Shown: positions 44,786-45,235 of the stretch, in pieces
Position numbering within the stretch: the first letter of the stretch is position 1
How the letters are laid out: each line of letters begins with the position of its first letter
Source: Escherichia phage vB_EcoS_HdH2
DNA length: 64,000 bases
Sequence record: NC_048748.1
Strand: one strand, 5' to 3'
Translations under genes and position numbers: made by a program
The notes under the pieces: generated by a model
Seen by the model: only the letters and a program-made list of their open reading frames with translations
Database searches by the model: none
Told to the model about the DNA's origin: nothing

Positions 44786-45235
44786 TTAATTTATTAACTG
44801 TAAGCTTCTTTTAATTTCAGACCTTACCTGCATCAAAAGAACTCCTAAAGTATTATCCCCGATGCCTCGGCAAACACCCCAATATGTATCTCCCCAGGTA
44901 TTTCCTTCAATCAAAGTTGCATTTTCTGTTGCTAACAGTTTGTCTCTCAAATCAGGGATTGCAAACTTTAACCGTAAAAGCTCTAGCATTACATCATCTT
45001 TTACCTTATCCCAGTCAGGGCGTATAATTAATTTACGTCCTCTACGTTTAGCAACTCCTGCATTTAGGGAACGTAATATATGAGCTACATCATCTTTTTG
45101 GTCGGATTTCATAGCCTGAAAAGCATGTTCTACAGTATCAGCATGCCATATTTCATTTAGGTATTCGAAAGTAATTGGTGATAAATAAAAGTTAGATAAG
45201 AAACTATAAGCACCTTTAAATTCAGTAATCTTCAT
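44786..45235 (-). CDS. NADAR-domain protein (YbiA-like)
   Basis: SNFY ... EHAFQA ... WG ... GDNTLGVLLMQVR pattern typical of NADAR/DUF1768. Confidence 0.6.
   Translation of the reverse strand: MKITEFKGAYSFLSNFYLSPITFEYLNEIWHADTVEHAFQAMKSDQKDDVAHILRSLNAGVAKRRGRKLIIRPDWDKVKDDVMLELLRLKFAIPDLRDKLLATENATLIEGNTWGDTYWGVCRGIGDNTLGVLLMQVRSEIKRSLQLIN

Follow-up and report, generated by a model that had tools for sequence, protein, structure and literature searches.

An orphan NADAR gene of the AdfN^Bas32 type in the early region of Escherichia phage vB_EcoS_HdH2 is a predicted counter-defence gene against DarTG1

A stretch of 64,000 nucleotides from Escherichia phage vB_EcoS_HdH2 (sequence record NC_048748.1; the whole stretch is referred to as the window) carries on its minus strand a gene for a NADAR-family protein of 149 amino acids. 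The gene product is very probably a guanine-ADP-ribose DNA glycohydrolase of the AdfN^Bas32 type that shields the phage from the toxin–antitoxin system DarTG1. The anti-DarTG1 function of the gene is already published, on a 97%-identical orthologue in the same phage genus. Thus, a gene that is called 'hypothetical protein' in its own GenBank record (QBQ81186.1 / YP_009843407.1, identical over all 149 residues) obtains a tested function via its orthologue; conceptually, nothing new is added beyond the work of Johannesman et al. 2025.

The gene is an exact open reading frame (ORF), and the neighbouring genes all lie on the same strand (coordinates of all features are given in Table 1). A first-pass annotation made from the sequence letters alone had assigned NADAR/YbiA signature blocks to this ORF and had named the lack of a NADAR fold on profile search as an outcome that would speak against it. 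Profile analysis revealed a near full-length match to Pfam PF08719 (E 1.9e-21, 77.5 bits with a gathering cutoff of 35.1, profile positions 9–163 of 163) and a match to phrog_1017 (E 6.4e-45). A sequence search of the PDB identified the two closest solved NADAR-family proteins, E. coli YbiA (2b3w, E 1.5e-14) and a NADAR from Phytophthora nicotianae (PnNADAR; 8bau, E 1.1e-6); with a profile built from 56 homologues of the window protein, the E values were 6.9e-36 and 5.8e-19, respectively. An AlphaFold2 model based on the 56-homologue alignment had a mean predicted local distance difference test score (pLDDT) of 97.4 and a predicted template modelling score (pTM) of 0.91, and the protein has the NADAR/YbiA fold. 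The ORF is a NADAR gene far beyond chance, in line with the initial assignment. Among nine alleles from T5-like phages, 21 codons showed synonymous variation only and nine contained amino acid changes, a pattern that is consistent with a coding sequence under purifying selection.

In public records, the same gene is labelled as hypothetical protein, swarming motility protein YbiA, GTP cyclohydrolase II, N-glycosidase, DUF1768 protein, or NADAR family protein, and one record from 2025 labels a T5-like NADAR gene as 'antitoxin-like enzyme'.

The toxin DarT1 ADP-ribosylates the N2 of guanine in DNA, and the NADAR antitoxin DarG1 undoes this modification (Schuller et al. 2023, PMC11543638); for DarT1 and DarG1, this bears out the statement in the first-pass annotation that NADAR enzymes take ADP-ribose off guanine and reverse DarT-type modification. 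In phages, gp30.3 of T4 (AdfN) is required against DarTG1 and also suffices (Johannesman et al., preprint PMC11257639; Nat Commun 2025, PMC11825919). A separate NADAR, encoded by the two T5-like BASEL phages Bas32 and Bas33, was described by the same authors under the name AdfN^Bas32. When expressed from a plasmid, AdfN^Bas32 neutralised DarT1 toxicity in uninfected E. coli and let RB69, T5, and Bas25 again form plaques at full titre on hosts with DarTG1, and it had no effect on DarTG2, which modifies thymidine (all PMC11825919). The earlier proposal of a phage-borne anti-DarTG factor is therefore supported for DarTG1, by way of an orthologue; the data support a target narrowed to DarTG1 and its guanine adduct, rather than to DarTG in general.

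Bas32 is phage IrisVonRoten and Bas33 is phage HildyBeyeler. With the Bas32 gene product (bas32_0066), the window protein shares 97% identity and shows four differences (I53V, I70T, I71L, and P73S); with that of Bas33 (bas33_0070), the identity is 96% and the differences are six (the same four plus A9T and E104K). The four substitutions common to both comparisons avoid all listed ADP-ribose-binding and catalytic residues. Like the window gene, the Bas32 and Bas33 copies code for 149 amino acids, belong to phages of the genus Tequintavirus, and are located between a T5.090 homologue and a DUF7022 gene, downstream of the RNase H gene and thy. The coding sequence coordinates show that they also overlap the upstream gene by the same ATGA. 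By near-identity and by identical flanking genes, the window gene thus belongs to the AdfN^Bas32 orthologue group. The nucleotide identity to the window gene is 98.2% for Bas32 and 95.6% for Bas33. The two NADARs are called identical in PMC11825919; the deposited genomes differ at two residues (A9T and E104K).

To place the residue roles reported in PMC11543638 on the window protein, pairwise alignments and alignments to the 56-sequence profile were used. The chain numbering of 8bau equals the PnNADAR numbering of that paper plus two, an offset that was consistent at eleven positions. As judged from these alignments, the predicted ADP-ribose-binding and catalytic positions E36, K43, K63, R67, D74, W75, E110, D116, and W119 are all kept in the window protein. 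Six of them (E36, K43, K63, E110, D116, and W119) are invariant in the 56 homologues, which are 46–96% identical to the window protein. E36 and K43 lie within the motif TVEHAFQAMK with the seven-residue spacing also present in YbiA and PnNADAR; the corresponding Glu/Lys pair (E43 and K50 in PnNADAR, E88 and K95 in C7 DarG1) coordinates the distal ribose and the phosphates (PMC11543638). E110 lies within LIEGNTWGDTYWG and aligns with the Glu of YbiA and PnNADAR, a signature of the YbiA subfamily. The lysine that DarG1 needs for rescue in vivo is present as K63 (the match between K75 of PnNADAR and K115 of C7 DarG1 was taken from PMC11543638).

Taken together, we propose that the gene product is an AdfN^Bas32-type NADAR, antitoxin-like and orphan. 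A T5-type early promoter would drive its production early in infection, with the gene placed second in a unit of two. This enzyme would bind the ADP-ribose with which host DarT1 tags phage DNA at guanine N2 and hydrolyse the N-glycosidic bond, by which the template would be restored and replication could go on in DarTG1 hosts. The window allele, with its four substitutions, is expected to act like that of Bas32; early timing and translational coupling are likewise predicted, and the phage would presumably need the gene on DarTG1 hosts.

Several points weigh against this assignment. The assays cover the Bas32 allele and not the window allele, and three of the four substitutions lie within the 69–74 loop; positions 70, 71, and 73 flank R72, which sits where the PnNADAR loop has the adenine-stacking Y84. 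Since three differences flank this residue, the transfer of function to the window allele carries one caveat. The literature on the T5-like AdfN consists of ectopic expression, and neither a deletion in a native phage nor an in vitro assay was found in the main text of PMC11825919; a literature search for 'AdfN' retrieved no later work on the T5-like protein. Furthermore, the window protein is devoid of the N-terminal extension of DarG1 (149 versus 219 amino acids, 122 residues aligned), its third catalytic position is occupied by the Glu of the YbiA type and not by the Asp of DarG1, and its nearest solved relative is YbiA, an N-glycosidase of the riboflavin pathway.

A rival function would be that of a metabolic YbiA-type N-glycosidase acting during infection on reactive riboflavin-pathway intermediates or on another small nucleoside-like metabolite, with only incidental activity on ADP-ribosylated DNA. 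Such hydrolysis of riboflavin intermediates has been ascribed to YbiA of E. coli and to COG3236 proteins of plants. E. coli YbiA has the same E...K motif and the same Glu at the third catalytic position as the window protein, and many public records say 'swarming motility protein YbiA', 'GTP cyclohydrolase II', or 'N-glycosidase'; however, the first two are transferred names and not tests. The window protein scored 66.0 bits with NCBIfam TIGR02464 (riboflavin biosynthesis intermediates N-glycosidase), a value that fits the metabolic function but stays below the curated equivalog-domain cutoff of 73.7. In the ~10 kb around the gene, no riboflavin genes (ribA/ribD) were found, either as neighbours or fused to the stand-alone NADAR; the neighbours are genes for RNase H, a 94-residue protein of unknown function, and DUF7022, together with thy, frd, and nrd genes. 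YbiA itself is the product of a chromosomal housekeeping gene in a LexA-controlled operon; it clears ADP-ribosylated guanine in vitro but fails to rescue DarT1 toxicity in vivo (PMC11125620), whereas the 97%-identical Bas32 protein rescues both DarT1 toxicity and DarTG1-blocked phages (PMC11825919). The phage protein (K63), PnNADAR, and DarG1 share a lysine at a position that is Ala in YbiA, and this exchange may account for the difference in vivo. Finally, the gene is dispensable in ~80% of T5-like phages. A metabolic function is for these reasons considered highly improbable.

The distribution among T5-like phages was analysed using a 2.7-kb segment around the NADAR gene. It matched 444 T5-like records, the best one listed being vB_EcoS_EASG3 with 98.5% identity (Demerecviridae, Markadamsvirinae, Tequintavirus). 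The NADAR gene itself was found at 95–99% nucleotide identity in 94 phage records, mostly from T5-like phages of Salmonella and Escherichia, and its flanks were found in ~444. This patchy accessory distribution is as expected of a counter-defence gene and agrees with the assignment as an AdfN^Bas32-type enzyme. In Eos, a more distant phage of the Markadamsvirinae, a NADAR with 53% identity is encoded at a comparable position, with thy and a gene for a ribonuclease upstream of it.

Two side observations concern database entries. First, 3.5-kb records labelled 'Listeria phage LM 4-14-1' (97.1% nucleotide identity) and a partial protein labelled Enterococcus faecalis carry the T5-like NADAR gene; these labels probably reflect contamination or mis-assigned host names and not phages of Gram-positive hosts. 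Second, the 90%-identity protein cluster that contains the 149-residue NADARs also lists many proteins of 92–94 amino acids, apparently the unrelated T5.090 homologues encoded upstream (e.g., WFG41111.1, which adjoins WFG41112.1). The mixed cluster is probably a clustering artefact, and its member count of 235 overstates the number of NADARs.

In the gene tables of T5 and of mar004NP2, T5.090, promoter P-H207, and T5.089 follow each other with nothing between. The borders of the additional DNA in the window were determined by pairwise global alignments, because the left flank was misplaced in a MAFFT alignment. Homology with T5 and mar004NP2 (94–96%) stops at ~45277, ~14 codons before the end of the 94-residue ORF, which otherwise aligns with T5.090, and restarts at ~44796 (T5) or ~44787 (mar004NP2). 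From the break at ~45277 and the return at ~44796 it follows that a block of ~480 bp is present or absent as a unit. The NADAR start codon ATG overlaps the TGA stop of the 94-residue ORF (ATGA). A function of this upstream ORF as dedicated partner of the NADAR was considered and rejected, as T5 and mar004NP2 have the ORF without a NADAR gene. T5 is sensitive to DarTG1 (Johannesman et al.), and it is without a NADAR gene. T5-like phages with the ~480-bp cassette are accordingly predicted to plate on DarTG1-bearing Escherichia and Salmonella that block T5, a host-range prediction that is useful for choosing or engineering therapeutic T5-like phages.

The NADAR gene lies downstream of a thy-frd-nrdB-nrdA block, and the region is syntenic with the T5 early genes T5.087–T5.096. 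Together with the T5-type tRNA cluster, this block identifies the window as the counterpart of the T5 early region. The statement in the first-pass annotation that the gene sits among nucleases was loosely worded: genes for RNase H and an exonuclease are both present, but the latter is 1.2 kb and three genes away. Upstream of the 94-residue ORF, a promoter-like site was read off the sequence that a consensus scan had omitted, its −35 hexamer matching at only 3/6 positions. A promoter function of this site is plausible, and the T5 record has a promoter annotated at the equivalent place between rnh and T5.090. The arrangement suggests a short early operon with the NADAR gene as its second cistron. 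The NADAR stop codon is directly followed by the counterpart of the T5 promoter annotated as 'promoter P-H 207' in the T5 record, which marks the downstream edge of the cassette; this P-H207-type promoter has an identical or near-identical sequence whether or not a phage carries NADAR.

Elsewhere in the early region, three small ORFs with no counterpart in the T5 gene table (Table 1) represent further accessory slots. The homing endonuclease gene hegH, which is located between nrdB and nrdA in T5, appears to be absent from the window. The ORF at 41966–42604 (212 amino acids) matches phrog_1491, 'tail fiber protein', a label that is also given to its T5 counterpart, T5.085; as it has no Pfam match and the structural genes are far away, this name was probably inherited as a mis-annotation.

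Table 1. Features of the window and predicted ADP-ribose-binding and catalytic residues of its NADAR protein. Residue roles and the match between PnNADAR and C7 DarG1 are from PMC11543638.
Feature	Position	Strand	Properties
Cluster of 24 tRNA genes	27369-39219	-	T5-type; includes two each of tRNA-Met, tRNA-Gln, tRNA-Leu, and tRNA-Ser
DEDD-type exonuclease, T5.087 homologue	42911..43612	-	PF16473 Rv2179c-like, E 3.4e-8; phrog_255 exonuclease
Small ORF	43920-44135	-	71 aa (amino acids); phrog_2380; no Pfam match; between T5.088 and T5.089
Promoter of DUF7022 gene (T5.089 homologue)	44749..44777	-	TTGCTA, 17 nt (nucleotides), TATAAT; consensus scan 10/12
adfN-type NADAR gene	44786..45235	-	149 aa; starts with ATG, ends with TAA; guanine-ADP-ribose DNA glycohydrolase (predicted)
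Accessory cassette, ~480 bp	44797..45277	-	Diverged 3' end of T5.090 homologue plus whole NADAR gene; absent from T5 and mar004NP2
94-aa ORF, T5.090 homologue	45232..45516	-	phrog_4593; function unknown; first gene of two-gene unit
Shine–Dalgarno sequence GAGGAGG	45527..45521	-	After promoter-like site 45572..45544
Sigma-70 promoter-like site of 94-aa ORF and NADAR	45544..45572	-	TTGCTT (45572..45567), 17 nt, TATAAT (45549..45544)
RNase H	45593..46069	-	PF00075, E 2e-32
Small ORF	46069-46338	-	89 aa; phrog_13270; no Pfam match; between rnh and thy
Small ORF	46338-46634	-	98 aa; phrog_17630; no Pfam match; between rnh and thy
Distal ribose	E36		PnNADAR E43; C7 DarG1 E88
Adenine and phosphates; essential	K43		PnNADAR K50; C7 DarG1 K95
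Needed for in vivo rescue, not for catalysis	K63		PnNADAR K75; C7 DarG1 K115
Pyrophosphate	R67		PnNADAR R79
Adenine-proximal ribose	D74		PnNADAR D86
Pyrophosphate	W75		PnNADAR W89
Pyrophosphate	K79		PnNADAR R93
Third catalytic position	E110		PnNADAR E125; C7 DarG1 D171 (structural equivalent)
Pyrophosphate, water-mediated	D116		PnNADAR D130
Pyrophosphate	W119		PnNADAR W133

The substrate range of YbiA-like NADARs bears on a wider function, in which the window protein would be a broader base-ADP-ribose hydrolase with other ADP-ribosyltransferase (ART) defences or toxins as main targets (forming cytidine adducts, guanine adducts of RNA, or being YarT-like or pierisin-like) and DarTG1 as one of several. 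YbiA-type and general NADARs, unlike DarG1s and AdfN of T4, also clear ADP-ribosylated cytidine from DNA and RNA (PMC12945103), and E110 places the window protein on the YbiA-like side. A myxobacterial NADAR of the YbiA type is described as the antitoxin of the non-DarT ART YarT (PMC11125620). AdfN^Bas32 is active on the unmodified DNA of E. coli and unrelated phages and is thus not tailored to one substrate context (PMC11825919), and some bacterial relatives adjoin Macro-domain and polyvalent-protein domains on apparent mobile elements (see below). However, AdfN^Bas32 showed no effect on the thymidine adducts of DarTG2 (PMC11825919). A broad main function is therefore unlikely; it would extend rather than exclude the assignment as a DarTG1 counter-defence enzyme, and is more likely as an added capacity than as the main function. 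By analogy, the T5-like AdfN can be pictured as a NADAR reduced to the YbiA core, which neutralises DarT1 although it lacks DarG1's DNA-binding extension and which might also clear cytidine-linked ADP-ribose and base-linked ADP-ribose in RNA. Such a broad eraser could defeat undescribed ART defences, with the variable loop 70–73 tuning its substrate range; we consider this extended picture possible but doubtful. The allele-variable loop 70–73 adjoins the adenine-contacting position.

Database searches aimed at defence systems gave little: a PADLOC scan of the window NADAR yielded weak matches only (PDC-M42C, E 1e-6; Drt5 and REase, E ~0.02–0.05) and no defence-system placement, and the score with NCBIfam DS32_2 ('NADAR family anti-phage protein') was far below threshold (45 bits, cutoff 240).

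Relatives of the window protein are widespread. In the protein database, 796 of the 806 candidates scored were related at E ≤ 1e-5; beyond the T5-like cluster and two shorter near-identical sequences, their identity was at most 60%. Among bacteria and archaea, with each species represented by a single genome, 517 stretches were found, of which the best 80 were used; these were 43–55% identical and derived from very diverse bacteria and from one metagenome-assembled genome (MAG) of a Pacearchaeota member. Neighbourhoods of the closest bacterial relatives were compared by ORF calling, all-against-all BLASTP, and clustering. No universal partner or toxin was found near them, and no neighbour was common to more than 12 of the 79 loci. 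An apparent neighbour cluster of 589-residue proteins in high-GC genomes was disregarded, as it looks like Arg/Pro-rich shadow ORFs. Several copies with 48–50% identity to the phage NADAR were present on single MAG chromosomes (at least four in a Bryobacterales member, OZ241991.1, and four in Candidatus Azotimanducaceae, OZ241908.1), which suggests carriage on repeated or mobile elements.

In a subset of loci from Lachnospiraceae, the NADAR relative is located directly upstream of a gene for an LPD11-domain protein and near genes for YodL-like and Macro-domain proteins. LPD11 and YodL-like 'polyvalent protein' domains are typical of conjugative elements. Such loci may be counter-defence clusters of a conjugative element in which NADAR and macrodomain are paired, and a role in ADP-ribose/nucleic-acid conflict on mobile elements fits this neighbourhood better than riboflavin metabolism does. 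A 675-residue ORF nearby resembles, by eye, an NAD-dependent DNA ligase.

Compared with the known anti-DarT1 systems, the window NADAR has the same fold and is predicted to catalyse the same reaction as DarG1 (BC4488-type; from E. coli C7 and G. lovleyi, PDB 8bat), the hydrolysis of guanine-N2-linked ADP-ribose on DNA. The two have in common the Glu/Lys pair and the lysine equivalent to K115 of C7 DarG1, and both DarG1 and AdfN^Bas32 neutralise DarT1 in vivo (PMC11543638, PMC11825919). DarG1 differs by its N-terminal β-β-α extension, for which a groove for single-stranded DNA was proposed, and by the Asp (D171 in C7) that replaces E110. It was not detected by the 56-homologue profile at E 0.01. 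DarG1 pairs with the toxin DarT1, whereas the window NADAR has no adjacent toxin: a scan of ten ORFs around it gave no ART domain, and the NADAR is an orphan gene.

AdfN of T4 (AdfN^T4, gp30.3, PF08010) belongs to the same superfamily and has the same anti-DarTG1 role as the AdfN^Bas32 type, both being orphan antitoxin-like phage genes. The two are distinct in sequence: the window protein has no match to PF08010 at E 0.01, BLASTP showed no pairwise similarity to gp30.3 (E 1.1), and hhalign gave only a partial profile match restricted to the N-terminal half (probability 87%). NADARs of T4-like phages have a His at the third catalytic position (PMC11543638), where the window protein has a Glu. 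They also differ in function, as AdfN^T4 fails to neutralise DarT1 in uninfected cells and rescues T5 and Bas25 little or not at all, whereas AdfN^Bas32 achieves both (PMC11825919). The window NADAR is thus neither of the DarG1 type nor of the T4 gp30.3 type; it belongs to a lineage of its own and amounts to a minimal YbiA-core NADAR.
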